From a virus (Duplodnaviria; Caudoviricetes), in IMG/VR virus record IMGVR_UViG_3300044608_001438, positions 1 through 59,751 of that record: a stretch of 59,751 nucleotides of DNA; one strand, 5' to 3'. The translations under genes and the position numbers were made by a program. The notes beneath the pieces were generated by a model. That model had not been told where the DNA came from. It saw only the letters and a program-made list of their open reading frames with translations, and searched no databases. Below are positions 1 to 59,663 of the stretch, in pieces. The stretch's first letter is position 1, and every line of letters starts with the position of its first letter.

Positions 1-127
1 ACGAACAATCGAATCCACCGAAGTCCTACTTGCGGCTTTTTCTGACATGGATGCTTTTCCTTTACGGACTCGGTGATTCGTAGCGTTAAAAATTACAAAT
101 CACCCAACACGAACTAGCCGCACCTTG
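1..127. repeat. Exact direct repeat of 56439-56565 (left anchor of the two-allele module; likely assembly k-mer overlap)
   Basis: Identical base by base for 127 nt, first mismatch at 128/56566. Confidence 0.95.
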
Positions 128-387
128 CCGCCAGATGTCAAAAGATCGATCGAAAGCAACCCATGAACATCATCAAACGTGGCTGGGATGCATCTCTGCC
201 CCGATTCCGTCGTCAATTCCTTGCATCCTTCAACATGCCCGACCGTGCCATCAAGCCTTTTGTGATGAATCTCTTCGGTTGATTCATGCACCCTAACCCG
301 GATTCCCGTCTCTGCATGTTGAAAAATCATGTCTGCCTCCATCGCCATCAAAACCAAAAACCAAAAGGATCGGGCAGGGTTCGACAC
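100..387 (-). CDS. Hypothetical protein, allele A (homolog of 56538-56816); true start probably at the internal MEADMIFQ
   Basis: Clear similarity to the allele-B ORF (MEADMIFQH.ETG..VRVHE.TEEI...RLDGTVGHVEG.KELTTE.GQRC). Confidence 0.75.
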   Translation of the reverse strand: MSNPARSFWFLVLMAMEADMIFQHAETGIRVRVHESTEEIHHKRLDGTVGHVEGCKELTTESGQRCIPATFDDVHGLLSIDLLTSGGKVRLVRVG

Positions 388-510
388 CTGCTTGCGTTGC
401 CCGCCGGCCTCGCCATCTACTCGCGGGTGCTTGTCTCGTCAGGACAAATATGCGGACTCCCCGAGCGCCACCGCCATCACCCTGCGTGGTTCCCGCCACG
501 CCGCCGATCC
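367..510 (-). ncRNA. Expanded tRNA-like RNA (144 nt)
   Basis: 7-bp GGAUCGG/CCGAUCC acceptor-like stem, GCGUGG/CCACGC D-like arm, GGGUG/CACCC stem, embedded UUGUC-CUGACGA-GACAA hairpin, GCAGG-UGUCGAAC-CCUGC T-like arm. Confidence 0.6.
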
Positions 511-518
511 AGTCTCCG

Positions 519-869
519 TCAAATGTTCTTGCTGTGTTTCTCGTTCTCTCCATGCTTTCCAAAAGCCATCGGGTAGTAATGGAAAGAACCGTTGCCGTCG
601 TCCTCGATTGCTCCCATCACGCAATCGGCCCAGTAAACCTCTAGCTTTCCCTCAAGCCCAATGTCGTGATGGCCTGTGTTTTGAGGCCAACTGTGCAGGA
701 ACTCAAGCAGATCCGCGACGGCTTTGCACTCAACTTCGTTGTGCTGAAAACGAGCGTTAGCACACGCATCGTTGAATCGCTCCTCCCATCCGTCCTGCAA
801 CTTCTTGACGCAATCTAGGCACCACCCGGTATCGCTGTGGTCGCAGTTCTGCAAGTGTGGCATTGTCAT
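519..869 (-). CDS. Hypothetical protein (N-terminal Cys/His cluster)
   Basis: ORF track; internal ATG at 869; fits the minus-strand early operon. Confidence 0.6.
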   Translation of the reverse strand: MTMPHLQNCDHSDTGWCLDCVKKLQDGWEERFNDACANARFQHNEVECKAVADLLEFLHSWPQNTGHHDIGLEGKLEVYWADCVMGAIEDDGNGSFHYYPMAFGKHGENEKHSKNI

Positions 870-929
870 TGTTTGTGGCCCTCGCTCTTTTGATACCAAA
901 AACCGACTCCGAATCCGATCCAGTATCCG

Positions 930-1025
930 TCAATCGCCATACCTCTTTTCAAACAACACACCAAGAAGAAAGCCGACCCAATACGCCGTCACAACCAGTC
1001 CAGCTAAACTTGCGATGTCCAACAT
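930..1025 (-). CDS. Small membrane peptide (31 aa, MLDIASLAGLVVTAYWVGFLLGVLFEKRYGD)
   Basis: Translated by hand; TGATG coupling to the upstream gene; one hydrophobic helix. Confidence 0.55.
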   Translation of the reverse strand: MLDIASLAGLVVTAYWVGFLLGVLFEKRYGD

Positions 1026-1201
1026 CACTCACCCTCCACGGCTGGCGGCTGGGGCAACTTGTTGCAAGCAACAGGCTCTTTTAGTCGCTCTAAAAAATCA
1101 ATCAACGGCTGAAAACTGAGGCCATCCTGCATTTCTGCGATCCATTGATTCCATTCCGATTGGCCATCATCAAGGCCAACTGCTTCCCTCGTCGCGTCCA
1201 T
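1025..1201 (-). CDS. Hypothetical 58-aa protein MDATR...QPPAVEGE, allele A
   Basis: Translated by hand; TGATG overlaps at both ends; same termini as 57628-57888. Confidence 0.7.
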   Translation of the reverse strand: MDATREAVGLDDGQSEWNQWIAEMQDGLSFQPLIDFLERLKEPVACNKLPQPPAVEGE

Positions 1202-1584
1202 CACTCACCCCCTTCTGTTGCTGGCGGCTTGGGGATCGGCTCAACCAATTTGATTTTTGTGTACCCAATCCGATCCGCCCATTTCGTTTGCCCAACCATA
1301 ACGCATGACGAACTACCCCAAATCTCCGTCCCAATTAGCCCCGCCAATACGTTAGGGTCGACCGTTGGCGGATTTAAGATCGTCAGCACTCTTTGACCGG
1401 CAACGCATCCTGGCTCTCTAGGCTCTAGCTTGAGTCGCACCGCTGGATTGTCTTTTGTCGCACCGTGGCACGTAGGGCAGTCGTCCCACGAATTCGCCTG
1501 ATCCTTTCCAGTCATGTTGCACGTTCCGCAATGACTTGGAGCGACCACAGTCACGGCTGCGATTCTTGCGTCAATCGCCATCAC
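1201..1584 (-). CDS. Hypothetical protein with two CxxC motifs, ending PPATEGGE
   Basis: ORF track; coupled junctions at both ends. Confidence 0.7.
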   Translation of the reverse strand: MMAIDARIAAVTVVAPSHCGTCNMTGKDQANSWDDCPTCHGATKDNPAVRLKLEPREPGCVAGQRVLTILNPPTVDPNVLAGLIGTEIWGSSSCVMVGQTKWADRIGYTKIKLVEPIPKPPATEGGE

Positions 1585-1985
1585 TCACCCACCATCGAAA
1601 AGTTCGGTTTACAGTGTTGCCTCAGCCAGATCGCTTGGCGTTCCCTCGCCGCATCCCACGCCGCAGCCCGTGCCGCAGACCACGCAGCCCGCGCCGCATC
1701 CCGCGCCGCTGATCGCGCACAATCCCACGCCTCATCCCGTGCCGCAGACCACGCAGCCCGCGCCGCATCCCGCGCATCCCACGCCGCTGATCGCGCACAA
1801 CCCACGGAAAACAATCGCAGCGTTCGATCGTCCAGCACGCCCGGCCTAGTCGCCACCCAGACCAGCCACTCCGGGCGAGCAGTCGCCCACACGTCCGCCA
1901 TCGTCTTACAGTTCGCAACCGCCCAGTCGCGGTCATCGAGGCAAGCATGGTGCCGCTCGCAAAAGTCCTCAATCGAAATCATCAC
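1581..1985 (-). CDS. Phage protein with AAWDAARAA-type Ala/Arg repeats, allele A
   Basis: ORF track; homologous to split gene 58168-58636. Confidence 0.8.
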   Translation of the reverse strand: MMISIEDFCERHHACLDDRDWAVANCKTMADVWATARPEWLVWVATRPGVLDDRTLRLFSVGCARSAAWDARDAARAAWSAARDEAWDCARSAARDAARAAWSAARAAAWDAARERQAIWLRQHCKPNFSMVGE

Positions 1986-2071
1986 TCACCCCCCATCAAC
2001 TGAACCGCCAGAATCAGCACGAACACCGCAACGATGCCGACTAGATCGGCAAGGGATAGATCACTCGCCAT
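1982..2071 (-). CDS. Small membrane peptide (29 aa, MASDLSLADLVGIVAVFVLILAVQLMGGE)
   Basis: Translated by hand; conserved homolog at 58860-58949. Confidence 0.75.
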   Translation of the reverse strand: MASDLSLADLVGIVAVFVLILAVQLMGGE

Positions 2072-2888
2072 CTAAAATATCTTTCGTCATTCTTGCCACA
2101 ACCTCAGCCACCTGTGGAACGATCGCATTGCCTAAGCATCTAAGTCGGTCCACCCTTCTGGGAATCCCATAAGCCACTCGACCCATTGCGGGTTCAATTG
2201 CCCAATGGACTGCTCCTCTTGTACGACAAACCCTTTCAAGTTGCCTTTTTGGTGATCGTGCATAGCCGACCTGCTCCCCGCTGGCCCGCTCCCCTTGGAG
2301 TCGGATGCCCGCGGTGTCGGCCACATCTTCACCGCACCAGGCAAACCATTTCGCAGGTTCGTCGGGTCTATCTCGCCCCGCTTCTCTGCGTCGTTCGCCC
2401 GAGGAGTGGGCCACGATCCATACCCTGTCCCGCCTGTGAGGGGCACCAACGGAGGAAGCTGGAATACAATGCCATTCCGCATCGTACCCGACCTCGGCCA
2501 GCGTCCCGAGAACTCTATCCAGCCCCCTGTTAAGCAACGCTGCCACGTTCTCCAACACAACCGCTCTGGGTCGCAATTCTCGAACCAAGCGAACGGCCTC
2601 GAAAAACAATCCGCTCCGCTCTCCATCCAATCCTGCCCCTCGTCCGGCGAAGGAAATATCTTGGCACGGAAAGCCTCCGATGATGCAATCGACTCGCTCA
2701 AGGTTGCTTGCATTGCACTCTCGGATGTCTCTTTGACGGTGGACTTTTGGCCAATGCTTTTCGAGGATCTTCGTTGCATAATCATCGATCTCCACTTGCC
2801 AACGGCAAACAAAACCAGCGCGTTCAAAACCGAGATCAAACCCACCGATGCCAGCAAATAGACTGCCAAAGGATAGATCACTCGCCAT
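2061..2888 (-). CDS. DNA (cytosine-5) methyltransferase, alpha-type polypeptide
   Basis: Motif I SLFAGIGG, motif IV GGFPCQD, motif VI ENV, motif VIII HRRDRVW, motif X LGNAIVPQVA. Confidence 0.95.
   Translation of the reverse strand: MASDLSFGSLFAGIGGFDLGFERAGFVCRWQVEIDDYATKILEKHWPKVHRQRDIRECNASNLERVDCIIGGFPCQDISFAGRGAGLDGERSGLFFEAVRLVRELRPRAVVLENVAALLNRGLDRVLGTLAEVGYDAEWHCIPASSVGAPHRRDRVWIVAHSSGERRREAGRDRPDEPAKWFAWCGEDVADTAGIRLQGERASGEQVGYARSPKRQLERVCRTRGAVHWAIEPAMGRVAYGIPRRVDRLRCLGNAIVPQVAEVVARMTKDILDGE
2132..2713 (-). CDS. Overlapping-frame C5-MTase beta-type polypeptide (TRD plus motif IX); start uncertain
   Basis: WPRSGTMRNG, WPTPRA repeats and LNPQWVEWLMGFPEGWT (motif IX-like), all absent from the alpha frame. 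Confidence 0.75.
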   Translation of the reverse strand: MQATLSESIASSEAFRAKIFPSPDEGQDWMESGADCFSRPFAWFENCDPERLCWRTWQRCLTGGWIEFSGRWPRSGTMRNGIVFQLPPLVPLTGGTGYGSWPTPRANDAEKRGEIDPTNLRNGLPGAVKMWPTPRASDSKGSGPAGSRSAMHDHQKGNLKGFVVQEEQSIGQLNPQWVEWLMGFPEGWTDLDA

Positions 2889-2904
2889 CGTCGCGTCTCC
2901 TGTT

Positions 2905-3070
2905 CCTCGTTCGTTCGAGTTCCTTTGTCGCGGTCACCTTGCCGCGTCATGCCCTAATTATATACCCTACATCGGCCAGGACAACCCCAGCCGTTCAGTT
3001 TTTCGGAAAAATTCCGGAAAAATTCCGGCCCAGTTTTCCCTGGGTTTCCAAAGGTCTCACGCGAGACCTT
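2905..3070 (-). promoter_or_regulatory. Early promoter cassette copy 1 (allele A)
   Basis: TTGTCC(2984-2979)-16 nt-TATAAT(2962-2957), upstream TTTTTCCGGAATTTTTCCGAAAAA tract and palindrome, downstream GACGCGGCAA...AACTCGAACGAACGAGG leader. Confidence 0.85.
3051..3070. repeat. 20-bp palindrome site (overlaps terL stop)
   Basis: AAGGTCTCACGCGAGACCTT. Confidence 0.95.
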
Positions 3071-4478
3071 GCCACGGATCGCTCCATTCCGGCCCCTGGT
3101 CGGCCACCGCTCCAGCCGCCTCGGTCAGCACCCGGATCGCCATCTCCAGCGCGTCCGGCCCGTCGTCGTGCTTGCCCCCCGGGAACTCGCGGAGTTGACG
3201 CACCAGCAGCTCGTTCGACGCGGTCCTCCGGAAGACGATCTCCCGTCGCTCCAGCCACGTCCCCAGCCGCTCGATCCGTAGCACCTTGTTCGTGCTGTTC
3301 TGCAGTAGGATCGGATCCGGTGCGATGTACCCGATCGCCTCAGTCGCATCGCACCAGTCACGCGCCAGCAGCTCCTGGAATGCGTTCCCCTCGATCGCCA
3401 CGAGTGCGGGCAGACGGTCCGCGCAGAACCGCGCAACGGTTCGCATCATCGCAGGCACCGGCTCGCGATCGATCTTCGAATCCACCCACAGCTTGCCCCC
3501 GGAGTATCCCACAAAAACACACCCGTAATAGTCGCCCCTCTTGGCGTCGCGTCCCTTTGATGGATCGAGAGCCACGGACGATAGATGGAACCGTTCCGGC
3601 CAATCATCCGTCCAGATGTTCGCGAAGTAGTGCGCCGGAAACTCCGCCGCCTCGCTGTCGCCTGGTCGCCCCTGGTACAGACTATTCCACCATCGCGCCG
3701 GTAGCGTCCGCTTGAGCTTGGCGAGCTTCTCGAACGGCCATCGCTCCGGCCACAATGCCTCCCCGATATCTCGCTGCAGTGGATCGATCTTCTGGTCTTC
3801 GCAGAGACCCTGGAGCGTCACGCATCGGATGGAGAAGCCCAGGTCGGCACGGCGCGCGAGCAGTCGCCCGATCAGGTCGTCCTCGTGCCACTGCGTCGAA
3901 AGAATCACGACCTTGCCAGTCGGACTCAACCGCGTCGATACTGTCGAGGTGAACCAGTTCCAGACGTCGTCCCGGTCCCGTTCGCTCGACGCTTGCTTCG
4001 GTCCTCGAACGTAGTCGTCGATCAAGAACAGGTCGGCACCGTACCCGACGATCGACCCACCAACACCCGCCGCAATCATCCCGCCAGCCTTGCCGTCGAT
4101 GTTCCAGTTGTTCGCTGAGGAGTGCGCCGCGTCGACCCCCTTGAGACCAACGAGGGGCCCGAGCTCGTGGACCTTGTCGCGGACCCATCTGGAATGATCC
4201 CTAGCAAGTCCCGCCGTGTGAGTCGCTCCGATCACTCGCTTGTGCGGGTTCCGCAGCAGGAACCACGCTGGAGCCCACTTGCCAAGGAACTCCGATTTCC
4301 CGTGCCTCGGAGGAGCCTTGACGATCAAAACTTCGCGATCGCTTTTCAGATGCGCTCGGAACTCATGGTCGATCACGTCCAAATGGCGCGCTCGCTGCCA
4401 GTCGCCCATCGAGTAGGTGACCGCAAGGTTCGCCGGACTCAGTAGCGCCAGCGCTCGCTGGTCATTCGGCGTAGTCAT
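3057..4478 (-). CDS. terL: Terminase large subunit
   Basis: Walker A APPRHGKS, Walker B FLIDD, nuclease ALDPS and HDDGPDA. Confidence 0.95.
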   Translation of the reverse strand: MTTPNDQRALALLSPANLAVTYSMGDWQRARHLDVIDHEFRAHLKSDREVLIVKAPPRHGKSEFLGKWAPAWFLLRNPHKRVIGATHTAGLARDHSRWVRDKVHELGPLVGLKGVDAAHSSANNWNIDGKAGGMIAAGVGGSIVGYGADLFLIDDYVRGPKQASSERDRDDVWNWFTSTVSTRLSPTGKVVILSTQWHEDDLIGRLLARRADLGFSIRCVTLQGLCEDQKIDPLQRDIGEALWPERWPFEKLAKLKRTLPARWWNSLYQGRPGDSEAAEFPAHYFANIWTDDWPERFHLSSVALDPSKGRDAKRGDYYGCVFVGYSGGKLWVDSKIDREPVPAMMRTVARFCADRLPALVAIEGNAFQELLARDWCDATEAIGYIAPDPILLQNSTNKVLRIERLGTWLERREIVFRRTASNELLVRQLREFPGGKHDDGPDALEMAIRVLTEAAGAVADQGPEWSDPWQGLA

Positions 4479-4956
4479 CCGGCGCCCCCGGATCAGGCCT
4501 GAACTCTCGCGCGTCGAGCAATCGATCCAATCGCGGATCCGCCTCGACCGTCTTGAGGAAGTCGTTGACATTGACGGCGTAGGTGTTCTGCTGGATGTTC
4601 ACGGTCACTTGGTCCGGCAATTGTGCTACGTTGTTGGCGTGGTCCATCGCTACCAGGATCTTCTGAGCCGCAAGCCGGTACCGGATGTCCTTCGTCGGAT
4701 CCAATGCGATCATCCCTGCATCGTAGACCATCCGCTCACGGAGACCCTTGGGGACCGGCCAGCGCTGATTGACCGCGCGAAGTTCTAGCCGCTGATCCTT
4801 GATCCTTGCGAGCTTCGCCAGCATCGCTGGATTACCTGCATCCGCTGCGGCTTTCGACTTGGCCACCACGTCCGGCGCGAACTCCGGCCACCATGGGGAA
4901 GGCTCCATTCCCTCTTCGATCTTTGGTAGTGGCTGTTTCTTCTTGCGTGGCATCAT
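4462..4956 (-). CDS. terS: Putative terminase small subunit
   Basis: Directly upstream of and overlapping terL; size and helical character fit. Confidence 0.6.
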   Translation of the reverse strand: MMPRKKKQPLPKIEEGMEPSPWWPEFAPDVVAKSKAAADAGNPAMLAKLARIKDQRLELRAVNQRWPVPKGLRERMVYDAGMIALDPTKDIRYRLAAQKILVAMDHANNVAQLPDQVTVNIQQNTYAVNVNDFLKTVEADPRLDRLLDAREFRPDPGAPDDYAE

Positions 4957-7715: not shown

Positions 7716-7885
7716 ACCACCCCCTCATAGTTGAATATCAAGACACCCTCAGCAGTCGGCCCGCCGTAGCGGTACCGATGCACCTTGCCGTCGTCGCCCG
7801 TGCGGATCACCGCCGGAGGCCATCGCAATGGCGGATACTCGCGGCGCGTTCCGTCCAGCGGACCGCCGACAAACTCGATCGTCAC
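7712..7885 (-). CDS. Hypothetical protein (FVGGPLDG motif)
   Basis: GTGA overlap; GGPLDG motif common in small phage proteins. Confidence 0.65.
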   Translation of the reverse strand: MTIEFVGGPLDGTRREYPPLRWPPAVIRTGDDGKVHRYRYGGPTAEGVLIFNYEGVV

Positions 7886-8106
7886 TTCCCCACCTCGATT
7901 TCTTTCTTCGCGGCCACGAGCGCCGCCGCGCACTGAGCAATCGACCGAAACTCCACCTTCCGCGTCACGATCCGCCCATGCCGATCAGTATCGACACAGT
8001 AGACGCTGCAATCGATCCCGCGTCGCTTCCAGATGCTCGCGATCTCTGCTGCCGCTCTTGCGCTCTTCGTGTTGTAACCCTTGCCTGCCTGATTGACTGC
8101 GTACAT
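7882..8106 (-). CDS. Hypothetical protein
   Basis: ORF track; second gene of promoter cassette 2. Confidence 0.6.
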   Translation of the reverse strand: MYAVNQAGKGYNTKSARAAAEIASIWKRRGIDCSVYCVDTDRHGRIVTRKVEFRSIAQCAAALVAAKKEIEVGK

Positions 8107-8139
8107 CGCATTGACCCTTTCGATTGATGATTGGAGGAA

Positions 8140-8167
8140 GCCCCCCTGATCACTGCGACCAGGGGGC
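8140..8167. repeat. Conserved cassette hairpin copy
   Basis: GCCCCCCTGATCACTGCGACCAGGGGGC. Confidence 0.85.
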
Positions 8168-8183: not shown

Positions 8184-8399
8184 TCAGAACTTCATCGTGT
8201 CGAACAGAGCGGTGCCGAACTCAGGGAACGCGGTACCCTTGCCATACTTGTTTCTCTTGCGGCTGATCTGGAGGTAGACGTTCTTGCCGGTCTCTTCCAG
8301 GATCTTGTCAGCCAACCACAGAGCAGCGATCGGGCTGAGAGCCAACAGACCGCATCCGAACTCCCGAGCAGCCACTGCGTTGATCTTGTCAATCGTCAT
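8184..8399 (-). CDS. Hypothetical protein, first gene of promoter cassette 2
   Basis: ATG at 8399 follows the conserved leader. Confidence 0.7.
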   Translation of the reverse strand: MTIDKINAVAAREFGCGLLALSPIAALWLADKILEETGKNVYLQISRKRNKYGKGTAFPEFGTALFDTMKF

Positions 8400-8408
8400 C
8401 GTCTTGTC

Positions 8409-8588
8409 CCTCGTATCTTCGAGTTGCTTTTCGTTCGCGGCTCGTTGCCGCGTCTTCAATCATCATGACATATCATCGGCCAGAAGGAAACCCCAGGTCG
8501 AACATTTTTCGGAAAAATTCCGGAAAAACTTCTGCCCCATGGATTCCCTGGAAATACTGCGTTTCCCGAAGGTCTCGCGCGAGACCTT
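8409..8588 (-). promoter_or_regulatory. Early promoter cassette copy 2
   Basis: TTTCCT-17 nt-CATGAT, GGCCGATG in the spacer, A-tract block, leader, palindrome. Confidence 0.8.
8569..8588. repeat. 20-bp palindrome site (perfect; overlaps dnaN stop)
   Basis: AAGGTCTCGCGCGAGACCTT. Confidence 0.95.
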
Positions 8589-9648
8589 AGCCCCGCTCCA
8601 TCGGCATTAGGACGTAGGTGCATGGCCCCGCCTGCAGCATCAGGGCTTCTTTCGCGCTGCGGACGTAGACGCTGACCCGCTCGGCATCGACCCCCGCTAG
8701 CCACTGGATCAGATACCGGGAATCGACGGTCAGCTCCGGTCGGTCTCCTCCCTCGTAGGGCATCGACGCGCGAGCTGATCCGATGTCGGCCGCTCGTGCC
8801 GCTGCCTCGATCGATCCATCGCGAAAGCTCAGGTCGATCCCTCGCGATTCCTGATCGCTACAGATCGCCGCTTGCTTGACCAAATGAAGGAAGGACTCCC
8901 GGCCAACAGTCACCGGATCGCTCGCCTGCGGAACGATCGATTCCCATTTCGGAAACCGCCCTTCGATCACTGAGCACCACACCGCGAATCCATCGGCCTT
9001 CGCCCACCAGCGATTCCCATCGGTCCCCATGTGGACCGTCCCAGTCACCTTCCGCGCGAGGTTCAACGCACGAGCCGGAACCACCACCGAAGTCCATGCC
9101 GCGATCGTTCCTCCGATCGTCGCGAATGACAAGCGGCGCCCGTCCGTTCCGATCATCCGCATCCCGTCGGTAGACTGTTCGAACATCACACCACCAAGAG
9201 CAAATCGTGAATTGTCGGTATCGATCGACCACACCGTCGCACTGATGCCACGGACCAGCGCAGCGGATTCGACTTCGACTTGCGGCTCCATCGCCGACGC
9301 CCACACAGGGAACTCATCCGGGTTGCCGGTAGGCAGTTTGAACACACCAGCCCCTGCCGCGATCTGAACCTGCCGATCGTCCACCTCCAGCGTCACGGTA
9401 TCGCCGGTCGCCTCTGAGATGATCGCGCCGAATCGCGTCGGCAATAGAACCTTGCACGGCCGATCGACTTCCGCTTCGATCTCCGCTATCGCGCCGATCT
9501 CAAGGTCGGTCGCCTGGAGCGTTACCCCGCTTGCGTCTGCCGTCAGCAGGACGTTTCGGAGCACTTCCTTTGGCCCCCTTGATGGCACCACCGCCGCGAC
9601 GCTTGCCCATGCCTTTTGAACTGCCTGCCGATTGAGTCTGATCTTCAT
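8587..9648 (-). CDS. dnaN: DNA polymerase III beta sliding clamp
   Basis: LQATDLEIG, NPDEFP, SRFALGGV, GTDGRRL, IEGRFP, YVLMPM. Confidence 0.95.
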   Translation of the reverse strand: MKIRLNRQAVQKAWASVAAVVPSRGPKEVLRNVLLTADASGVTLQATDLEIGAIAEIEAEVDRPCKVLLPTRFGAIISEATGDTVTLEVDDRQVQIAAGAGVFKLPTGNPDEFPVWASAMEPQVEVESAALVRGISATVWSIDTDNSRFALGGVMFEQSTDGMRMIGTDGRRLSFATIGGTIAAWTSVVVPARALNLARKVTGTVHMGTDGNRWWAKADGFAVWCSVIEGRFPKWESIVPQASDPVTVGRESFLHLVKQAAICSDQESRGIDLSFRDGSIEAAARAADIGSARASMPYEGGDRPELTVDSRYLIQWLAGVDAERVSVYVRSAKEALMLQAGPCTYVLMPMERG

Positions 9649-11173: not shown

Positions 11174-12747
11174 GCGTAAGTCCTCGATGCTGGGAGATGG
11201 TACTTCGAACTTTCCTTGCCAGGAGGTGGATTCTTGAGCTGATACGGGCTCACCGAAGGAATCCCGGCCTCAGTACACTTGCGATAGAAAATCGGAATCA
11301 GACTTGAGAATGGCAAGCCAGAATAGACCGACGACCATAGGCAAGAATCCCATAGCTTTTGATGCGTCACCGCCTTCGACTTCGGTCCCTTCGTCTTGAA
11401 TACTGGCCCCTCCTGCAACACCAGTTCCCCGGACTCCTGCATGATCCGACGGACGCTCCGCTTGTGCTGATGCTTGCAATGAGGGCAAACGTCGCCCGAC
11501 GTGCGCCATCCGTGACACTTCGGACATTGGATCGGCTCTGGCTCCTCGCCTTTCTTGTACCGCTCCATCCTGTTGTCCGCGATGTCCTTCGACGTCTCGC
11601 CCAAGATCCACTCGCGGTCCTGGTTCGGCGATCCGTGCCGCCAGTATCCTCCACCGTGGTCCTGGAGGATCTTGTCGCTGTAGTCCGGCCAATATCGCTG
11701 AATGCGCCCGACCGACTGCAGATAGCTCGCGATCGATCCGAACACTGTCGCGAAGATCCCATGACGCAACCACGGCATGTCGATCGCCTCGCGAAGGATG
11801 AACCGGTTGCAAAGAACCTTGATCTCGCCGGACCGACTCAGGCGCAAGACTTCCTCTCGCGTCTCCTTGTTCAATGGATGCTGGACCAACTGCCAGTTGC
11901 CGGATGCCTGCAACTCCGGGAGCATCGCGACGCCATCGCCGACTGCCGCAGTCAGCACACCTCGCCGCATGAACTCTTCCGCGAACCAGAACGCACCACC
12001 GACCGAAGGCCCGAACAGGATCGCAGGTTCGGCAAACGGATTCAGCTTCCGCCAGTTCGCGAAACAGTCGCCGATGATCTTCGCCGCTCGTGGCTCCAGC
12101 GCCTTCGTCGAATACTCGAAGTCGGCATTCCGACCCAATCCAGAACAATCGATCTCCGACGGAGAATAGACGCGGACCGGCAGGTGAGCCTTGACCGATC
12201 GCAGTTCTGAGTAAGTGCCGAACTCGATCAGTTCATCGCAAGCATCCTTGAGACCGACCGGGGTGCCGGTGAATCCTACCAGCGTCGCCCCGCGTGCCGT
12301 GTGTCCGGAGAACAGCCCGCCCTCTCCGTGTCCTCCATCGAAGACCGCCCGCGCCTTCGTTCCTCGCTGCTGATGGAACTCATCGACCAGGACCAGCGTC
12401 GCTGCGTGCAGATCCTCCCGGCCCCGTTTGGCGCACCTTGAGAACGCGGTGTCGATCATCGCCATCTCGATCGGATGTTCCCCGGTCCGCTTGTAGCCGC
12501 TGGCGAAGATCCCATGATCGATCCCGCGATCGTTGAATACCGCGCTCATCTGCTCAAGCAACATAGTCCGGTGAAGGTAGATCGCCACCTTGCCCCCATG
12601 CTCGACCTCCTCCACGGCCAGTTGTGCCATGCAAGTAGTCTTCCCGGCACCAGGAGGTGCAACCCCGCACATCCGCCGGACGCCCGCCGCGCGTCGCTCG
12701 TAGACCAGCGATTTGCCCCTGTCCTGATGCGGCCAATTCACCCTCAT
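11155..12747 (-). CDS. SF2 DEAD/DEAH-type helicase with C-terminal zinc finger
   Basis: APPGAGKT, VDEFH, TGTP, QSVGRIQR, CPKC...CPHC. Confidence 0.9.
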   Translation of the reverse strand: MRVNWPHQDRGKSLVYERRAAGVRRMCGVAPPGAGKTTCMAQLAVEEVEHGGKVAIYLHRTMLLEQMSAVFNDRGIDHGIFASGYKRTGEHPIEMAMIDTAFSRCAKRGREDLHAATLVLVDEFHQQRGTKARAVFDGGHGEGGLFSGHTARGATLVGFTGTPVGLKDACDELIEFGTYSELRSVKAHLPVRVYSPSEIDCSGLGRNADFEYSTKALEPRAAKIIGDCFANWRKLNPFAEPAILFGPSVGGAFWFAEEFMRRGVLTAAVGDGVAMLPELQASGNWQLVQHPLNKETREEVLRLSRSGEIKVLCNRFILREAIDMPWLRHGIFATVFGSIASYLQSVGRIQRYWPDYSDKILQDHGGGYWRHGSPNQDREWILGETSKDIADNRMERYKKGEEPEPIQCPKCHGWRTSGDVCPHCKHQHKRSVRRIMQESGELVLQEGPVFKTKGPKSKAVTHQKLWDSCLWSSVYSGLPFSSLIPIFYRKCTEAGIPSVSPYQLKNPPPGKESSKYHLPASRTYAWLRRR

Positions 12748-13549: not shown

Positions 13550-13828
13550 CTAATCTTCGCTCTTATTTCGATGAGCAATCTGTCTCGCCATCGTTTTAAG
13601 ATCGCTCTCGGTTGGAAGTCTCCAGCCGATTCCGAGCGTGTTTTGGTCCCAAACGCTCGACACGTACTGGAACTCGCCACATTGATCGACAAGAGAAACA
13701 CAAACCAAGTGGGTACCCCATTGATTGGTCTCGCGGTCAACCACCTGAACGAAACGCGGCCCGAAGTGGCTCTTGCTCACCAGGATCGTTCCGTTCTTGA
13801 TTTCACTCAGGTCGATTGTGTTTCGCAT
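13550..13828 (-). CDS. Hypothetical protein, first gene of promoter cassette 3
   Basis: ATG follows the conserved leader. Confidence 0.75.
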   Translation of the reverse strand: MRNTIDLSEIKNGTILVSKSHFGPRFVQVVDRETNQWGTHLVCVSLVDQCGEFQYVSSVWDQNTLGIGWRLPTESDLKTMARQIAHRNKSED

Positions 13829-13836
13829 CGTCGTGT

Positions 13837-14013
13837 CCTCGTTCGTTCGAGTTCGTTTCGTTCGCGGTCCCTTGCCGCGTCTTCAATCAATATGACCTAT
13901 CATCGGCCAGAACTCAACCCCGCCGGGATCATTTTTCGGAAAAATTCCGGAAAAATTCCAGCCCCGGCGGATCGACAATTTCCAGGGATTTCTCAGGTCT
14001 CGCGCGTGACCTT
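13837..14013 (-). promoter_or_regulatory. Early promoter cassette copy 3
   Basis: TTGAGT-17 nt-CATATT, GGCCGATG, A-tract block, leader, palindrome. Confidence 0.8.
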
Positions 14014-14838
14014 CGCCACTTCTCGGGAAATCGCGTCGGTCCAGGGGAAGAGCCGATCCTCGATCCCTGCGGCGTCGATCGCCCGGAGGAACTGGCCCCA
14101 GGTCTTCGCTACCTTCTTCGCCGCGTCCGGGTCGATCGCGATCACCTCGACCTCTTCCTCCGGCTCATCATCCGCGACGGTCTCGCCGTAAACGTGTCCG
14201 CACTGCCCGCACTTGTCGTGCCCTGCGTCCGTGGTCAGCCACCAGTCAACGTCACACGCCGGACACCGCTCGCCCTTCGTCTGCCCGCGCGGTCCCTCCG
14301 GTTTCTCCTCCTCAGTCGGTGCCGTGTAGGTCGGCTCCTTGATCTTCGCCGGTGCCTCTGCTCCATCGCGCCGCGTGATGGTCGTCTGCTCCGGATGCTC
14401 TTCCTTGCGAATCTTCCCGACCAGGGCTTGCGACACCCGGCAAATCTGCGCGATCTCGACCGCTGGCTTTTTCGGCCACTGAGCCAGCGCCATCCGCACC
14501 GCGTTTCGTTTGTCGTCGTCCGTGCGCCTGACTCCGTGGTCAGCGTTCGCGCCGCACGCACGAGCCATCACCATATCGAGGTCGCCTTCGATCACCTCGG
14601 CCCAAACCTTCGACCGGCCAGCCTTGAGACATGCTCCGCAGCGCTGCCAGCCGTCGGTCAGGTAGAGCACCCCAGCGACCGATACGATCTCGATCGGTGC
14701 TTTGAAAGGCCACCCCGACTCCTTTCCGCTCTCCGCAATCGCCTGGTACTCCGTCTGGACGTCATCCGTCACGGACCGCCGCGCTTGGTACTTGGAGTCG
14801 AAAGTGATCTTTTCAATCGATACCCATTTCTGTGCCAT
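13993..14838 (-). CDS. ParB-like protein (N-terminal ParB domain, HTH, zinc ribbon)
   Basis: YQAR, PIEI...LYLTDGWQR, ANADHGVRRTDDDKR, HTH PAVEIAQICRVSQALVGKIR, CPAC/CGQC. Confidence 0.85.
   Translation of the reverse strand: MAQKWVSIEKITFDSKYQARRSVTDDVQTEYQAIAESGKESGWPFKAPIEIVSVAGVLYLTDGWQRCGACLKAGRSKVWAEVIEGDLDMVMARACGANADHGVRRTDDDKRNAVRMALAQWPKKPAVEIAQICRVSQALVGKIRKEEHPEQTTITRRDGAEAPAKIKEPTYTAPTEEEKPEGPRGQTKGERCPACDVDWWLTTDAGHDKCGQCGHVYGETVADDEPEEEVEVIAIDPDAAKKVAKTWGQFLRAIDAAGIEDRLFPWTDAISREVAKVTRET
13994..14013. repeat. 20-bp palindrome site (encodes the ParB-HTH C-terminus KVTRET*)
   Basis: CAGGTCTCGCGCGTGACCTT. Confidence 0.9.
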
Positions 14839-15379: not shown

Positions 15380-15854
15380 ACTCCACCCCAAACATTGAAT
15401 TGAAAGGATCCGACTTATCCAGGACCACGGAACATCCGCGATCCGTTGCCCAACTCCGCTCCTCAGTAAACGGCCCGCAATGCAAGCACGCCTGAGCATC
15501 CTCCGAAACGTACACCGAACATCGCTCGCACATCGCCGCCCGTGACCCGCCACGCTCGGCTACAAATCCAAGCGACTCCAACCACTCGCGATCCGGACCG
15601 AACCATAGATAGTCATCCCATGCCGACCACGCGAGCCGGCACAGGTCACGCATCGCAGGCCCTCGCTGCATGATGATCCACGCGAACGGCCCGCGATCGT
15701 CACGCAAGAACGCCGCCACCCGCAGGAGCCTTGCCGACAATTCGCGATCGCTGACGATTGCTGTGAAGTGAGTCGGGAAGAACTCCGGATCGATTCGCGG
15801 CGACCTGACGTAGAGCCCGTTATCCGTCCGGTGAAGAATGAACTTACTCAGCAT
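15363..15854 (-). CDS. Hypothetical protein
   Basis: ORF track; overlaps both neighbours. Confidence 0.55.
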   Translation of the reverse strand: MLSKFILHRTDNGLYVRSPRIDPEFFPTHFTAIVSDRELSARLLRVAAFLRDDRGPFAWIIMQRGPAMRDLCRLAWSAWDDYLWFGPDREWLESLGFVAERGGSRAAMCERCSVYVSEDAQACLHCGPFTEERSWATDRGCSVVLDKSDPFNSMFGVEYAGNG

Positions 15855-16701
15855 TCGCAGGCCCCTTGGTCATCTCTGGGATCCGCTTCGCGATGTCCGC
15901 GTTGATATGGTCGACCTCGGACTGATCGAACCACTTGCGCTCCAGGTAACCCTTCGCCCGGGTCTGGTACTGGCTCAGGAGAGCAAGGTCGGTGCAGACT
16001 GGGATCCGCCGGCGAAGCGACTGGAACAAGACCTGGAGGTGTATACCCTGGTCGATCTTGTTCGCGACGCGCATCCGGTTGGAAAGTCGCTCCACGTCTT
16101 CGAGCTGATCGACCGGCCCCTTGTTCGCACGTTCGAGGACTTCCATCTCCGGGGGAAAGACCGCCGGCTGCGGCTTCTCTGCTGGCTTGTCTGCCGACTT
16201 CGGATGAGTCTGCGGGGTTGGCTTGGCCTGCTCCTTCGCGGGCTTCTCCGCTGGCTTGTCGGCCTGCGTTGGTTCTGCGATCGAGGCGTCTGGGTCCATC
16301 GCCTCCGTAGGGATACAGAGCAGTTGAAACAATGCATACTTGTAGGCGATCGACATCGCTTTGTTGTACGCCTTGTCTCCAGTATCCGCCGCCTCTCCGA
16401 TTACCTCCGTCCAAATCGATGAGCCATCGACGCCCGACACCAGATGGTACCGCATCCTCAGCCTGACAAAAAACTGGACGCCTCCATTTCGCGTCGTTCG
16501 TTCCTTGTGGTCCGACTCCATGATCTCAGTACGAGGGTATACCTTGCACTTCGCCAGCACCGGATGAACCGTGTTGTAAACGTCATCGATGCCCCTGAAC
16601 GTGAACCCTTGCTGGATGTTCTTCCGGTCCTTTGCGATCGCGTCGACCTCTGCCAGCATCGCGCAGATCGCGCCGTGGATTGCCTCTACCTTGTCCGTCA
16701 T
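15844..16701 (-). CDS. erf: ERF-family ssDNA annealing protein
   Basis: QGFTFRGIDDVYN, GEAADTGDKAYNKAMSIAYKYAL. Confidence 0.9.
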   Translation of the reverse strand: MTDKVEAIHGAICAMLAEVDAIAKDRKNIQQGFTFRGIDDVYNTVHPVLAKCKVYPRTEIMESDHKERTTRNGGVQFFVRLRMRYHLVSGVDGSSIWTEVIGEAADTGDKAYNKAMSIAYKYALFQLLCIPTEAMDPDASIAEPTQADKPAEKPAKEQAKPTPQTHPKSADKPAEKPQPAVFPPEMEVLERANKGPVDQLEDVERLSNRMRVANKIDQGIHLQVLFQSLRRRIPVCTDLALLSQYQTRAKGYLERKWFDQSEVDHINADIAKRIPEMTKGPANAE

Positions 16702-21033: not shown

Positions 21034-21219
21034 TCAGCCCTTCAAGAACTCAAGAGACTCTCTGGCTGTCTTTCCGAGATAGACACCATCTCGCCACCAA
21101 CCGGCCAGAGTCTCACCTCGCCAATTCTCCGCCTTTTCCTTGACCGCCCCCAGCTCAAGCAGCTCTTGGCGGGCGATGTCTTCCTTGCTGGCGATCTGAT
21201 TCGATACCTTCTTGCTCAT
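21034..21219 (-). CDS. Hypothetical protein, first gene of promoter cassette 4
   Basis: ATG follows the conserved leader. Confidence 0.75.
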   Translation of the reverse strand: MSKKVSNQIASKEDIARQELLELGAVKEKAENWRGETLAGWWRDGVYLGKTARESLEFLKG

Positions 21220-21227
21220 GGTCTTGT

Positions 21228-21465
21228 CCTCGTTTCTTCGAGTTCTGTTCTGCGCGACTGACTGCCGCGTCTTCGATCATTATACACTCTATCGGCCCGA
21301 GGGCAACCCCAAGCAGGCTATTTTTCGGAAAAATTCCGAAAATTCCGGCGACGGGATTCGTCCGGATTCTTGTTTTCCCTTGTTTTTCTTGGGTTTCCGG
21401 CGTCTAGCCCCGGACGGAATCGGCTCGGATTTTCGTCCGGATCCGAAGGTCTTGCGCGAGACCTT
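21228..21465 (-). promoter_or_regulatory. Early promoter cassette copy 4
   Basis: TTGCCC-16 nt-TATAAT, GGCCGAT, A-tract block, leader, palindrome. Confidence 0.85.
21446..21465. repeat. 20-bp palindrome site
   Basis: AAGGTCTTGCGCGAGACCTT. Confidence 0.95.
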
Positions 21466-49733: not shown

Positions 49734-49795
49734 ATCAAAGACCCTCCGTTCCGCATGAGGTTACGGCGGAGGTAATCACTTTGGCGGAAGGTCGC

Positions 49796-50416
49796 CTATT
49801 GAGTTGCGACGGTCGCGGCATAGACAAGGAAGCATCGGCAGTTCGGATGCGCCGGAGGTGGCCCCATCGACCCCCAGCGAGAGCGCGGCCGATTGTGCAT
49901 CGGACCGCAGACCGGACAGACCCGCTCATCCAACTGAGTGATCCACCGCGGCTCCGTGTCGATCCCGATCCCTTCGAGGATGTCCTGCCCTTCGGCTTCC
50001 GCTTCGCTCACCGCCGTCGTGGTCTCAGTCACTCCCACCGTATCGGCCCGCGATGGCGCCAAGACCCGATCCTCCAGCGTCCGCGCGAAGTCGTCCGAGT
50101 CGGCCAGCCATCCGCGCGAGGTCGCCGCCATGTCGCGCCCGAGTCGTTCGGCTTGAGCCTTCGCCCCTGCGTCGATGGATCGCTGATTGCGCTTGAGCAA
50201 TTCCGCGATCGCCTGATCGTCGGCCGCGATGAGGATCAGCATCGCGATCAGTGCCCGCTGCCGGATCTCCTGGATTGTCTCCAGGGTTGCCGCTGCGATC
50301 TCACGGCCAAACCGGTCCGCATCGAATCGGTTCCGGTCGCGGAACCGTCCGAAGACCTCGCGCACGTCCGACGCAAGGGCCCGCTCATAGGTCGATCGTT
50401 CAGCTAGATCCGGCAT
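49796..50416 (-). CDS. Mu gpF-like minor head protein
   Basis: WITQLDERVCPVCGPMH...PPAHPNCRC. Confidence 0.9.
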   Translation of the reverse strand: MPDLAERSTYERALASDVREVFGRFRDRNRFDADRFGREIAAATLETIQEIRQRALIAMLILIAADDQAIAELLKRNQRSIDAGAKAQAERLGRDMAATSRGWLADSDDFARTLEDRVLAPSRADTVGVTETTTAVSEAEAEGQDILEGIGIDTEPRWITQLDERVCPVCGPMHNRPRSRWGSMGPPPAHPNCRCFLVYAATVATQ

Positions 50417-50426
50417 CGCATCTCCG

Positions 50427-50446
50427 AAGGTCTCGCGCGTGACCTT
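50427..50446. repeat. 20-bp palindrome site (7 nt after the portal stop)
   Basis: AAGGTCTCGCGCGTGACCTT. Confidence 0.95.
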
Positions 50447-50453
50447 TCAAAAC

Positions 50454-52790: not shown

Positions 52791-52853
52791 TTCCCGGCCC
52801 CCTTGCCCCGACAGTACCCGACCCAATTCACTTTGGCCACCCAGGAGAACACC

Positions 52854-53510
52854 ATGCCCCGGCAGATGATCGGAACCGAAAAGATCATGCGAATCTATCG
52901 GCTCCGGCAGATGGGACTGAATTTCAGCGACATTTCGAAACGCGTCGGATGCGCCATGAATACCGTCCGCGCTCACCTATCCGGCGAGTATCTCTACCCT
53001 CCAGCCCTTGCGTCGAAGCTCGACCGGCTCGCCCCGGCCCTGCATCTTATCACACCGGACGATCACATATCACTTGCGGAAGCGTCCTTCCTGATCCCCA
53101 CGCGGCCATCATCCAGGACGCTGGCGCGGTTCTGCCTCGACGGTTACTTGCGGTCCGCGATCATCGATAGGCGGTACTGGACCCGCTCGGAGTGGGTCGA
53201 AGAGTTCGTCCGCGCGAGATGGCCCGATGCACCGACCGGGCTTTGGGTGCATGTTTCGGCGGTGCCATACATGCTTTCGAAGAGACCTTGCGACGGATTC
53301 CGCAAGGCCCTTTCGCCGAAGATCATTTGCGGTCAGCGGGTCGTGTTCGTGCCCGATGTTCGGGCTGTTGGTCAGATGCTCGGCAATCCCATCCGGTCCG
53401 ATCGGTCGATCGTTTCTGTTGCGATCGACCTGCTAGAACGTTGTAGAGGCAGAGTCATCCTGCGCCGGACAGACTTCACTCGATGCCGGATACAGTCTGC
53501 TTTTGACTAG
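52854..53510 (+). CDS. Double-HTH DNA-binding protein (the only credible plus-strand gene)
   Basis: AGGAG RBS; GLNFSDISKRVGCAMNTVRAHL HTH and a second winged HTH (ISLAEAS...SRTLARFCLDG..LRS...RYWTRSEWVEEF, DUF1580-like). Confidence 0.8.
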   Translation: MPRQMIGTEKIMRIYRLRQMGLNFSDISKRVGCAMNTVRAHLSGEYLYPPALASKLDRLAPALHLITPDDHISLAEASFLIPTRPSSRTLARFCLDGYLRSAIIDRRYWTRSEWVEEFVRARWPDAPTGLWVHVSAVPYMLSKRPCDGFRKALSPKIICGQRVVFVPDVRAVGQMLGNPIRSDRSIVSVAIDLLERCRGRVILRRTDFTRCRIQSAFD

Positions 53511-54562
53511 GACTCCTTCTTGATGCGGGCGTAGCGATAAGAATCGCGGGCGCTTTCCAAATTGAAGGTGTTGAGATTCGCCCTCCACCCAATCAACTCG
53601 TCTTCCTCCCAAGATATTGAATCGTCGGAAAACTCACACGGTTTCCCGCAATCTCCAGGCAATACCGGCTGCCGGTATTCCGGCTCGGCTGGCTTGGCCG
53701 GCTCTGGCTCCTTCGCTGGTGGTTCGGCAGGAGATAGCCAGTCGCGGTGAAAAACAAATCGCAGTCCATGCCAAGCAAATCCGCAAATGTGGAAGCGGCC
53801 TTCCCGCTCGCTTTCAATCTTGCCGACCTTTCCGTCGAACTGGTGCATCTGCGGCGCCCAGTATGGATGATCCCACTCCTCCCAATCGCTTGGCCTCGTC
53901 ACCCGCACCCAGTCGCCAACCTTCGGCTCCCATGCTGGCTTGGGCGTCTCGATCTTGATTCGGGCAAAACGCCATTGCATGGGACGATAGAATCCGACGT
54001 GCCCGCAAAGGAATCCGTAGGGGCGGTCCCAGTCTATCGCGAGCAAAGTACACTCCCTCCACGGATCTGCTGTAGAGTTTTGGACCTCGACTATCTTTCC
54101 AATGTCGCCGTCATTTACCAGCCTGTAGCCTTCGCCCGGGGCTGGCTTTGGATCTGCCGGATGCTCTGGCTCCTTCGCTGGCTCATCGACAACCGGACGA
54201 GCGAAAACGCAAAAATCATCTTTGCGAACCGTCATCCCAGCAGAGATTTTGACAGGGCGCCATCCTAAGCCGTCTGGCGGATCGCTGGGCGGGCTTGCTT
54301 TCCCTTTCACCCGATCGCTAGAACACACAACCTCTCCCGGCTCAAGGATTCGCCACTTCTTCGGCGGCTCGTCGGCTACCATTTTGTTGTCGCCGGCAAA
54401 ATGGTCTGCCTGATGCTCACCAGAATCCTCCAGCATTTCATGCAACTGGATTTCTCGCGCGGGCCTCTCGCCAATCTCGATCAGCCGATCCATCTTGTCG
54501 CTCATCACATGCAACACCGCACCGATGTGACGCAAGAGCTCATTGGTATCCACTTCCATCAC
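53507..54562 (-). CDS. Modular hypothetical protein with EPAKEP linkers
   Basis: Several ~60-aa modules separated by Pro/Glu/Lys linkers. Confidence 0.8.
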   Translation of the reverse strand: MMEVDTNELLRHIGAVLHVMSDKMDRLIEIGERPAREIQLHEMLEDSGEHQADHFAGDNKMVADEPPKKWRILEPGEVVCSSDRVKGKASPPSDPPDGLGWRPVKISAGMTVRKDDFCVFARPVVDEPAKEPEHPADPKPAPGEGYRLVNDGDIGKIVEVQNSTADPWRECTLLAIDWDRPYGFLCGHVGFYRPMQWRFARIKIETPKPAWEPKVGDWVRVTRPSDWEEWDHPYWAPQMHQFDGKVGKIESEREGRFHICGFAWHGLRFVFHRDWLSPAEPPAKEPEPAKPAEPEYRQPVLPGDCGKPCEFSDDSISWEEDELIGWRANLNTFNLESARDSYRYARIKKES

Positions 54563-54610
54563 TCAACCCTCCAGTTCACCAGTAACAAAGTTCAGTCAAC
54601 GCTCACGCAA

Positions 54611-55045: not shown

Positions 55046-55071
55046 ACCTCACTAGAAAAAAAGTTCGTTAC

Positions 55072-55091: not shown

Positions 55092-55097
55092 CCAAAA

Positions 55098-59494: not shown

Positions 59495-59663
59495 CCTCGT
59501 TCGTTCGAGTTGGTTTTCGTTCGCGGCTCGTTGCCGCGTCATGCCCTAATTATACACCCTACATCGGCCAGGACAACCCCAGCCGTTTAGTTTTTCGGAA
59601 AAATTCCGGATTATTTTTCGCCCCGGTTTTCCTTGGATTCTCGAAGGTCTCACGCGAGACCTT
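59495..59663 (-). promoter_or_regulatory. Early promoter cassette (allele B of copy 1)
   Basis: TTGTCC-16 nt-TATAAT, A-tract, leader, palindrome at 59644-59663. Confidence 0.85.

Follow-up and report, generated by a model that had tools for sequence, protein, structure and literature searches.

The locus described here raises the question of why the two ends of a single phage contig carry two different versions of the same operon, and of how genes that are otherwise unrelated come to be connected within it by the same short stretches of coding sequence. The contig, IMG/VR virus record IMGVR_UViG_3300044608_001438, was analysed over its complete length of 59,751 nucleotides (nt), referred to below as the window, and is labelled "linear" as no exact end repeat is present; to judge from its genes and from the waters in which it is found, it is that of an uncultured freshwater tailed phage. 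Its ends, at 1-3158 (allele A) and 56439-59751 (allele B), are two versions of one minus-strand operon located between the terL and ssb genes. The reading favoured here, to which we give a probability of about 0.72, is that A and B are alleles of different strains joined by the assembler and that the locus is a row of gene cassettes reassorted at short shared joints.

Both versions lie between the same two anchors, and BLASTN of one end against the other yields collinear blocks that cover 954 of the 2923 bases of A 128-3050:

128-3050, minus strand: allele A operon, transcribed right to left, with its open reading frames (ORFs) and translations
56566-59643, minus strand: allele B, the same operon
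1-127, no strand: left anchor, 127/127 identical to 56439-56565, with the first mismatch at 128; the contig begins at the anchor's first base
3051-3158, no strand: right anchor, 108/108 identical to 59644-59751 (the contig's last 108 bases), comprising the end of terL and a hairpin
A 1-377 with B 56439-56812: 86.7% identity, including the left gene (128-377, 87%)
A 497-518 with B 56816-56837: 100%
A 1023-1051 with B 57626-57654: 96.6%
A 1177-1233 with B 57861-57917: 89.5%
A 1642-1994 with B 58259-58645: 70.5%, in the repeat-protein gene
A 1980-2072 with B 58858-58950: 84.9%, the gene of a membrane protein of 29 amino acids (aa)
A 2886-3158 with B 59476-59751: 91.0%, of which 2886-3050 is promoter and 5' leader

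The first-pass annotation of the window had described A and B as one skeleton with unrelated genes swapped between short conserved linkers. Its counts are exact, i.e. the first linker is identical at 40 of 43 positions, the second at 28 of 29, the 22-mer at 497-518 at 22 of 22 and the left anchor over its full 127 nt, and the genes flanking the linkers are indeed unrelated by BLASTP; what it understated is the extent of sharing, given the 954 alignable bases. The products of A4 and B6 have only a 12-aa tail in common, and A6 and B8 give no match at E<=10. As had been claimed, the gene between the two linkers (A5, 58 aa; B7, 85 aa) keeps both termini around a different core, with a common 11-aa tail by BLASTP and a common MDATR start in the translations. 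The two linkers align between A and B at E = 3.7e-8 and 7.5e-17. The short shared elements are as follows:

1186-1228, minus strand: linker 1 at the A4/A5 junction, encoding ..KPPATEGGE, a TGA that overlaps the ATG, and MDAT; B copy at 57870-57912 (B6/B7)
1023-1051, minus strand: linker 2 at the A5/A6 junction, encoding ..QPPAVEGE and a stop that overlaps the ATG; B copy at 57626-57654 (B7/B8)
57061-57100, minus strand: a diverged third linker copy at B9/B10, encoding ..EPPSSVEVGK followed by stop/start, which lies beyond a search with three mismatches
497-518, minus strand: the 22-mer that closes the array just past the stop of A8; B copy at 56816-56837, and a copy at 100% at 12018-12039 of the viral contig L004

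These linkers are the longer forms of a core joint, GGTGAGTGATG, which encodes Gly-Glu-stop and in which the A of the TGA starts the next ATG. With at most one mismatch it occurs nine times in the window, always on the minus strand, and eight of the nine copies lie in A or B; 1.3 would be expected by chance, and none of 100 shuffles reaches nine. Nearly all of the genes end in ..G-E-stop, their last codons doubling as ribosome-binding site and start codon for the gene that follows (GGNGAGTGATG), and stops and starts overlap by 1, 4, 8 or 11 nt at 7/7 junctions from A1 to A8 and at 7/9 from B1 to B10, an arrangement that would allow translational coupling. At a subset of the junctions the joint is extended to a coding linker of 17-45 nt, CCGCCAGC(CGTG/AACA)GARGG, and linkers 1 and 2 are themselves paralogous, reading CCGCCAGC-AACA-GAAGG.. 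(PPATEG.E) and CCGCCAGC-CGTG-GAGGG.. (PPAVEGE), respectively. On the coding strand, no promoter-like or terminator-like site was found at the linkers within the operon.

The same skeleton recurs in other genomes. A terL search of viral contigs gave three close loci, two of which (L004 and L005) reach the module, in both cases behind a terL of 95% identity. In allele C (L004) a new first gene precedes B2-like, membrane and B4-like genes; the B4 homologue of this allele ends in ..FVRQQPPAVEGES (..VRQQPPAVEGES) rather than in ..FVRKVGE, which points to the acquisition of linker 2, and is followed by A-type genes (A6/A7-like and A8-like) and then by the 22-mer. In allele D (L005) the first gene is different again, and the membrane gene is followed by a 224-aa protein that matches no Pfam family. 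The 29-aa membrane proteins of the four alleles were aligned, and with this alignment 29 metagenome contigs were retrieved, for a total of 33 module sequences including A and B. The search for further alleles proposed in the first-pass annotation thus added 31 contigs with this gene, and the 33 sequences together show 25 gene pairs at linkers. The membrane gene is present in 33/33 sequences. Its downstream neighbours belong to at least eight families (11, 8, 3, 3, 2, 1, 1 and 1 members, with 3 unassigned) and its upstream neighbours to at least five (21, 3, 1, 1 and 1, with 6 unassigned), these counts being approximate as the ORF caller mis-framed the methyltransferase. Contigs long enough to show both sides carry one module each. 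In two of them the surroundings are different: in L058 (6772 nt) genes for a nuclease-like protein and a sliding clamp come after the module, and in L068 (4438 nt) a primase (PriCT_1/DUF3987) stands before it, which suggests that the whole module, or the promoter-led position, moves between genome contexts. The ssb search returned distant relatives only (4 loci, 23-40% identity), and the five close loci found with the portal gene extend no more than 1.9 kb upstream of it and so do not reach the module.

When either 17-mer was sought with up to three mismatches in the 33 module sequences, 34 linker occurrences were found in 20 of them; one (L051, position 1268, with three mismatches and no Pro-Pro-Ala junction) was dropped. 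For the other 33, the flanking 150 nt on each side were then clustered, which makes the counts of linker contexts independent of gene calls. The linker CCGCCAGCCGTGGAGGG (PPAVEGE, ribosome site, overlapping stop/start), or its sister, thus stands at 33 junctions between 25 distinct pairs of upstream and downstream sequence, drawn from 17 upstream and 17 downstream clusters. The DUF551 tail is followed by five different genes and the B7 family by three, while one small membrane gene has four different upstream genes at its linker; the genes are reassorted around a constant joint. The CCGCCAGCCGTGGAGGG 17-mer occurs in 20 distinct contexts, and its positions 4-16 (CAGCCGTGGAGGG) are invariant in 19-20 of the 20, and this extends to the wobble positions of CCA, GCC, GTG and GAG. 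Over these contexts the pairwise identity averages 0.93 for the 17-mer vs 0.30 for the 45 nt upstream, and for four distinct DUF551 tails it is 0.97 over the linker vs 0.81 over the 45 nt upstream. N-terminal codons also travel with the joint, which accounts for the sub-gene resolution noted in the first-pass annotation: MDAT is the start of A5, of the B7 family, of some DUF551 genes and of one further gene, and VSDVLMQEI is that of two different proteins. The 22-mer directly follows a linker in two contigs (L060 and L074).

An assembly artefact, in which contigs are chimeric at the shared linkers, would produce a similar picture, the linkers being repeats and the samples rich in alleles; it is nevertheless hardly credible here, since the linkers (17-45 nt) are shorter than assembly k-mers, so that real reads should have spanned the joints, since 6 of the 25 gene pairs recur in two separate, independent records, and since 1746-2993 of allele A recurs with 0 differences in the Logan contigs, built with another assembler, of each of two public runs, X1 and X2.

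The reassortment is also visible in where similarity begins and ends. An all-vs-all BLASTN of the 33 sequences gave 2105 blocks (>=60 nt, >=75% identity), from which, after breaks at contig ends had been removed and ends within 6 nt merged, 876 unique block ends were obtained. Of these, 51 lie within 5 nt of a linker interval, where a fraction of 0.017 would be expected (3.4-fold, p=7e-14), and 190 lie at called gene starts (expected fraction 0.083; 2.6-fold). Breakpoints scattered at random relative to the linkers had been named in the first-pass annotation as the outcome that would contradict it, and across the 33 module sequences the opposite was found. At a linker, block starts gather at offset -2 (nine starts) and block ends at +7 to +39; as both classes of block overlap the linker, it belongs to both neighbours. 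The breakpoints are non-random, and all gene joints, beyond the long linkers, behave as exchange points. The count is inflated to some degree by the tandem repeat of the repeat-protein gene, which yields many internal BLAST blocks.

As to the source of the linker, the match of B6 to the DUF551 profile (residues 76-90 against profile positions 53-67 of 68) extends as far as the Pro-Pro with which the linker starts; this points to a DUF551 origin, i.e. the linker was probably at first the 3' terminus of a DUF551 gene, from which it spread to other genes. A strict linker pattern gave 0 matches in viral contigs, being too strict, as allele C reads GAGTCGTG. The 19-mer AGCCGCCAGCCGTGGAGGG gave six stretches, one in the contig of L004 and three at DUF551 gene ends of other phages, the remaining two being unrelated and looking like chance; of the three DUF551-end contigs, L078 and L080 align to the window over 1.1 kb of 11-14 kb and L079 over about 0.3 kb. 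It could be argued on these grounds that the common tail is a deletion scar, the 3' end of a neighbouring DUF551 gene having been fused to upstream genes without any exchange between genomes at the linker: the linker's Pro-Pro start belongs to the DUF551 domain, and DUF551 genes are the commonest linker carriers and stand in tandem in L062, L067 and L075. Deletions alone fail, however, to give one upstream gene with up to five downstream genes and one downstream gene with up to four upstream genes, and the 5' edge of the shared stretch is discrete (the nine starts at -2), whereas random fusion points would scatter, which makes this explanation quite improbable.

Two other properties of the linker were considered. 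A hairpin hiding the ribosome site (CCGCC:GGAGG) as the reason for conservation is unsupported, with eight junction RNAs scoring z = -0.99 to +1.18 against shuffles. A Chi-like hotspot is a tentative lead: the octamer GCTGGCGG, which is complementary to the linker core and one base off the E. coli Chi sequence, has 14 copies vs 3.6 expected (0/100 shuffles reach 14). Its orientation is inconsistent, with the four linker copies on the plus strand and nine of the other ten on the minus strand.

Whether A and B belong to one molecule or to two was approached through sequencing depth, taken from Logan contigs with one figure per contig, for allele A and the core:

Run X1, possibly the source run: exact A pieces 20.9 and 24.9; exact core 17.5-25.3; a diverged terL variant 18.7; bins that variants have in common 43-51
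Run X2: exact A pieces 167-181; exact core 265-279; a diverged terL variant 78; a joint from 384 to 489, skipping 385-488, at depth 82

In X2, A thus stands at about 0.65 of the exact-core depth, which would place it in roughly two thirds of the genomes that have exactly this core; it is not on every such molecule, in line with the co-existing strains proposed by the first-pass annotation. The depth check suggested there came out in favour of two strains in X2, where A lies below the core, and not in X1, where it equals the strain-matched core. X1 holds 0.97 of the sampled words of 49752-59751 (core and B). The contig geometry is informative as well, since the left end lies exactly 127 nt before the first A/B difference, as would fit a vertex of a k=127 graph closing a cycle, and JGI assemblies use k up to 127. 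A variant contig of X1 over 3051-3242 differs at 3150, 3159, 3180 and 3195; the window's contig thus stops right ahead of a polymorphic site, plausibly a branch of the graph.

Several of these results weigh against the favoured reading. As regards the joints, the enrichment of breakpoints at gene starts comes close to that at the linkers, and selection for intact genes alone would also put breakpoints at gene ends; counted by junction, a breakpoint within 10 nt is present at 26 of 32 linker junctions vs 138 of 214 others (Fisher p=0.043); conserved anchors also include the 90-nt membrane gene and the promoter cassette; and the neighbour families of the membrane gene carry the gene-call errors mentioned. 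Furthermore, L056 is B-like (98.96% over 767 nt) and lacks B8, the joint lying inside a shared GGGAG between two ribosome sites, so that this cassette indel is bounded by 5-nt microhomology only and homology even as short as that of the linkers is not always needed. As regards the two alleles, B lies outside the depth comparison, X1 (20.9-24.9 for A vs 17.5-25.3 for the core) cannot by itself separate strains from one molecule, and the right overlap is 108 nt rather than 127.

The first group of objections leads to an account in which the joints are conserved for function (ribosome site, coupling and maybe the C-terminal peptide), the mosaic results from illegitimate or microhomology recombination followed by selection, and the linkers mark viable joints. 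The gene starts and the GGGAG joint would both fit it, as would a passage of PMC3029335 according to which most mosaic junctions are without findable boundary sequences and illegitimate recombination is thus favoured. We consider this account unlikely, as protein or ribosome-site function leaves unexplained the invariant wobble bases of CCAGCCGT, which lies upstream of the ribosome site in 20 unrelated contexts, as well as the presence of the same 17-29 nt on unrelated genes, and as both classes of similarity block overlap the linker.

The second group bears on the possibility that A and B are genuine diverged terminal repeats of one linear molecule. X1 accords with this, A being at strain-matched core depth and the anchors at about twice that. 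Direct terminal repeats would, however, be identical copies, both on every molecule, and to our knowledge those of known phages are identical, being copied from one template at packaging; here 954 of 2923 bases are alignable, A is at about 0.65 of the exact-core depth in X2, the left end sits where a graph vertex would be, and about thirty other alleles exist, with one module on each contig that shows both sides. This possibility is therefore very improbable. In view of the X2 depth, of the many single-module alleles and of the fact that true terminal repeats are generally identical, A and B are best taken for population alleles of co-existing strains that the assembler joined, having entered a polymorphic locus of the de Bruijn graph, as we picture it, via A on one side and via B on the other. 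Most likely the genome is circular or circularly permuted, of about 56.4 kb, and the contig walks slightly more than one round of it.

The operon is headed by a promoter cassette of about 190 nt, four copies of which are present per genome (from an alignment of seven copies):

2870-3075, minus strand: promoter cassette of A, with hairpin GGTCTCGCGTGAGACC, a T-rich box, TTGTCC-16-TATAAT, a leader hairpin and a ribosome site; B copy at 59460-59668
8380-8593, minus strand: paralogue
13800-14024: paralogue
21200-21400: paralogue

The promoter-like sites, each with 10/12 matches, are at 2984..2957 and 59576..59549; the copies have in common an invariant TTTTTCCGGAATTTTTCCGAAAAA box and the leader hairpin GACGCGGCA..GCCGCG, and the hairpin of the cassette sits at the end of terL. 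The first gene behind the cassette differs in all four alleles A-D. The cassette probably sets a common early expression class, and it probably also breaks short-read assemblies, one contig (L003) ending inside it. A second variable region is seen when L004 1029-1410 is compared with 7877-8163, where the insertions of L004 are flanked by copies of a terminator-like hairpin (seen at 59221-59247), an arrangement like that of the PeSL units discussed below.

The genes of the two alleles, all on the minus strand, are listed from the promoter onwards:

2061-2888, minus: A1, C5 DNA methyltransferase (Pfam DNA_methylase, E=2.5e-51)
1982-2071, minus: A2, 29-aa membrane protein (TM29), the best-conserved anchor within the array; B copy B3 at 58860-58949
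1581-1982, minus: A3, repeat protein with AARDAA-type repeats
1201-1581, minus: A4, CxxC protein
1025-1201, minus: A5
930-1025, minus: A6
866-940, minus: A7
519-869, minus: A8
100-348, minus: A10
59257-59481, minus: B1, small protein
58939-59187, minus: B2, small protein
58633-58860, minus: B4, 75-aa protein
58424-58633, minus, with an out-of-frame remainder at 58168-58461: B5, repeat protein, frame-broken
57885-58175, minus: B6, DUF551 (Pfam, E=2.1e-7)
57628-57885, minus: B7
57290-57628, minus: B8
57061-57249, minus: B9
56864-57061, minus: B10
56538-56783, minus: B11

Only the methyltransferase and DUF551, among the 19 gene products of A and B, passed the Pfam cut-off, and 44 of 53 representative cassette proteins are without a Pfam family at E<=0.001. 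The cargo of other alleles includes a Lar-type restriction-alleviation protein (L063, E=1.3e-7), an HNH/NUMOD4 endonuclease (L049), a HAD hydrolase (L066) and DUF551 and DUF7352 proteins. Such a content suggests an accessory region for early host take-over or anti-restriction.

The repeat-protein family is built on a GC-rich tandem repeat that codes for AARDAA/AAWSAA units (1620-1800; 58220-58360; 980-1210 in L053), and its members range from 68 to 191 aa across alleles. The gene of B (58168-58636, minus strand) has a 14-nt deletion relative to L053, with flanks that are 100% identical, and is either a pseudogene or a minority variant.

The methyltransferase gene A1 is dual-frame (2061-2950, minus strand). 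In the annotated frame the Pfam match is limited to residues 6-166 (motifs I-VIII), with LGNAIVPQVA again at its end, while the +1 frame is open for 272 codons and bears the conserved middle part (xPTPxAxD twice, LNPQWVEWLMGFPEGWT). By tblastn the +1 frame has matches in 144 phage records, and in 3/3 of those checked it is +1 to the annotated methyltransferase coding sequence; the second ORF is unannotated in these three GenBank records. Past motif VIII, conservation is higher in the +1 frame than in frame 0 for 6/6 pairs (z 8.7-28 vs 1.9-12.9). The arrangement looks like the two-polypeptide type of M.EcoHK31I, in which, as described in a passage of PMC3404938, one subunit holds motifs I-VIII and X and the other motif IX.

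At the far end of the array, about 119 nt of A (378-496) separate the 22-mer from the left gene and are absent from B. Contigs of runs X2, X8 and X9 join across this stretch (384 to 489 or 493), and in L004 its place is taken by other non-coding sequence with a GGTTCGATTCC stretch; ARAGORN found no tRNA in the tRNA-like stretch that follows the 22-mer in L004. Allele A lacks cover in X9, which carries no weight as evidence since absence does not follow from contigs, and a further joint in X9, 521 to 1030, is weak (shorter side 22 nt, depth 3.8).

The long ORFs of the contig are almost all on the minus strand, and three of them matter for the position and the possible mechanism of the locus:

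3057-4571, minus: terL, large terminase (Pfam Terminase_6N, E=1.4e-7), with its 3' end inside the right anchor
55366-55875, minus: ssb (Pfam SSB, E=4.8e-27), downstream of the module
15844-16701, minus: ERF-family single-strand annealing protein, candidate recombinase (Pfam ERF, E=2e-20)

Among the large ORFs, Pfam also identifies a sliding clamp, two helicases, an N6/N4 methylase, tail tube, capsid, MuF and portal. ARAGORN calls a "tRNA-???" with a two-base anticodon at 55787-55862 (minus strand), inside ssb, which is probably a false positive. The best terL match in 50,697 GenBank phage records is about 33% identical, so that no host can be named, and the phage is not T4-like. All of the 24 public runs that hold the sequence are lake-water metagenomes.

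In the mechanism that we propose for the favoured reading, the locus would be a series of small early genes, packed closely between terL and ssb and led by a promoter, in which nothing is constant except the joints, the 90-nt membrane gene and the promoter cassette, while the genes between them are swapped, gained and lost. Co-infecting relatives would recombine at short identical stretches, probably aided by the phage's own ERF annealing protein; the linkers, with crossovers falling inside them, the membrane gene and the 190-nt promoter cassette would be the favoured sites of such annealing-type exchange, and microhomology events would add new cassettes. Survivors would be viable because every joint restores a stop, a ribosome site and a start. 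Some support for an annealing protein comes from passages of PMC3945230, according to which Rad52-like recombinases recombine short, diverged homology far better than RecA, an Erf/Exo pair matches lambda Red in efficiency on substrates of 78% identity, and Red-beta needs a pairing segment of at least 23-27 bp to act efficiently. The long joints, with 26-45 nt of near-identity, fall within that range, and the 11-nt core falls below it.

A bolder version, which we hold only tentatively and regard as rather doubtful, is that the linker is a selected universal adaptor (DUF551-derived tail, ribosome site and start), kept letter-perfect down to the wobble bases, into which early genes are plugged in frame by the annealing protein. 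If true, it would amount to a recombinase-driven, integron-like exchange of cassettes without an integrase and within coding sequence, with an adaptor shared among otherwise unrelated lake phages such as that of L078 (1.1 kb alignable in 14 kb). Integron features themselves were absent where looked for: none of the 34 large ORFs scanned (the small ORFs of the core were outside the scan) belongs to an integrase family, and no attC-like fold was found, with no significant joint hairpin in 8/8 folds (z = -1.0 to +1.2).

The finding fits the known boundary-sequence, or linker, model, of which it is a well-documented case. The original papers on lambdoid boundary sequences are reportedly those of Susskind and Botstein in 1978 and of Clark and co-workers in 2001, and PeSL cassettes of T4-type phages are also said to have been treated by Comeau and co-workers in 2014. 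A passage of PMC3029335 treats boundary sequences in modular phage evolution as plausible and rarely visible. As in that model, short joint sequences are common to unrelated modules, the same joint has different partners across genomes, and general or phage recombination is the presumed agent; here a conserved sequence lies between unrelated genes (the 40/43 and 28/29 linkers; 0.93 for the 17-mer vs 0.30 for its flank), has 25 pairs of partners (up to five per gene), and is where similarity begins or ends (51 of 876 against 0.017, with gene starts also enriched). In contrast to the boundary model, the joint is coding, adding a 7-8-residue tail (PPAVEGE) to the upstream protein and MDAT to the start of some downstream proteins; with an overlapping stop/start attached to it, it is seen in 25 contexts within one natural population, and it has an apparent DUF551 origin.

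In the PeSL units of T4-type phages, repeated regulatory cassettes in the hyperplastic early region flank non-essential ORFan genes and mediate their shuffling, as set out in a passage of Arbiol et al. 2010 (PMC2839356). The phage described here resembles these in its four promoter-plus-hairpin cassettes per genome, each a sigma-70-like promoter and stem-loop by variable ORFs, a likeness that concerns the right anchor only; unlike them, its intra-operon linkers are translational coding joints, neither promoter nor terminator, and the phage is not T4-like. The relaxed homologous recombination by Rad52-like phage recombinases treated in Martinsohn et al. 2008 (PMC2327257) offers, with Red-beta, RecT and Erf, a mechanism for exchange at short diverged homology, and here the phage encodes an ERF protein and has linkers near 23-27 bp. 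The experiments in the relevant passage of De Paepe et al. 2014 (PMC3945230) used hundreds of bp in lambda, whereas the present phage is known from sequence. No description of this particular joint was found in the literature searched, a search that was not exhaustive.

Two accounts of phage mosaicism have been rivals since the 1970s, one invoking homologous exchange at boundary sequences and the other illegitimate recombination followed by selection. In one natural population, the same 17-29-nt joint is found here between 25 gene pairs, with alleles that co-exist in water samples and an ERF gene in the same genome, and this combination offers a concrete system for testing the linker model. 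There is also a practical warning in that such loci break or wrap metagenome assemblies and yield false, diverged "terminal repeats".

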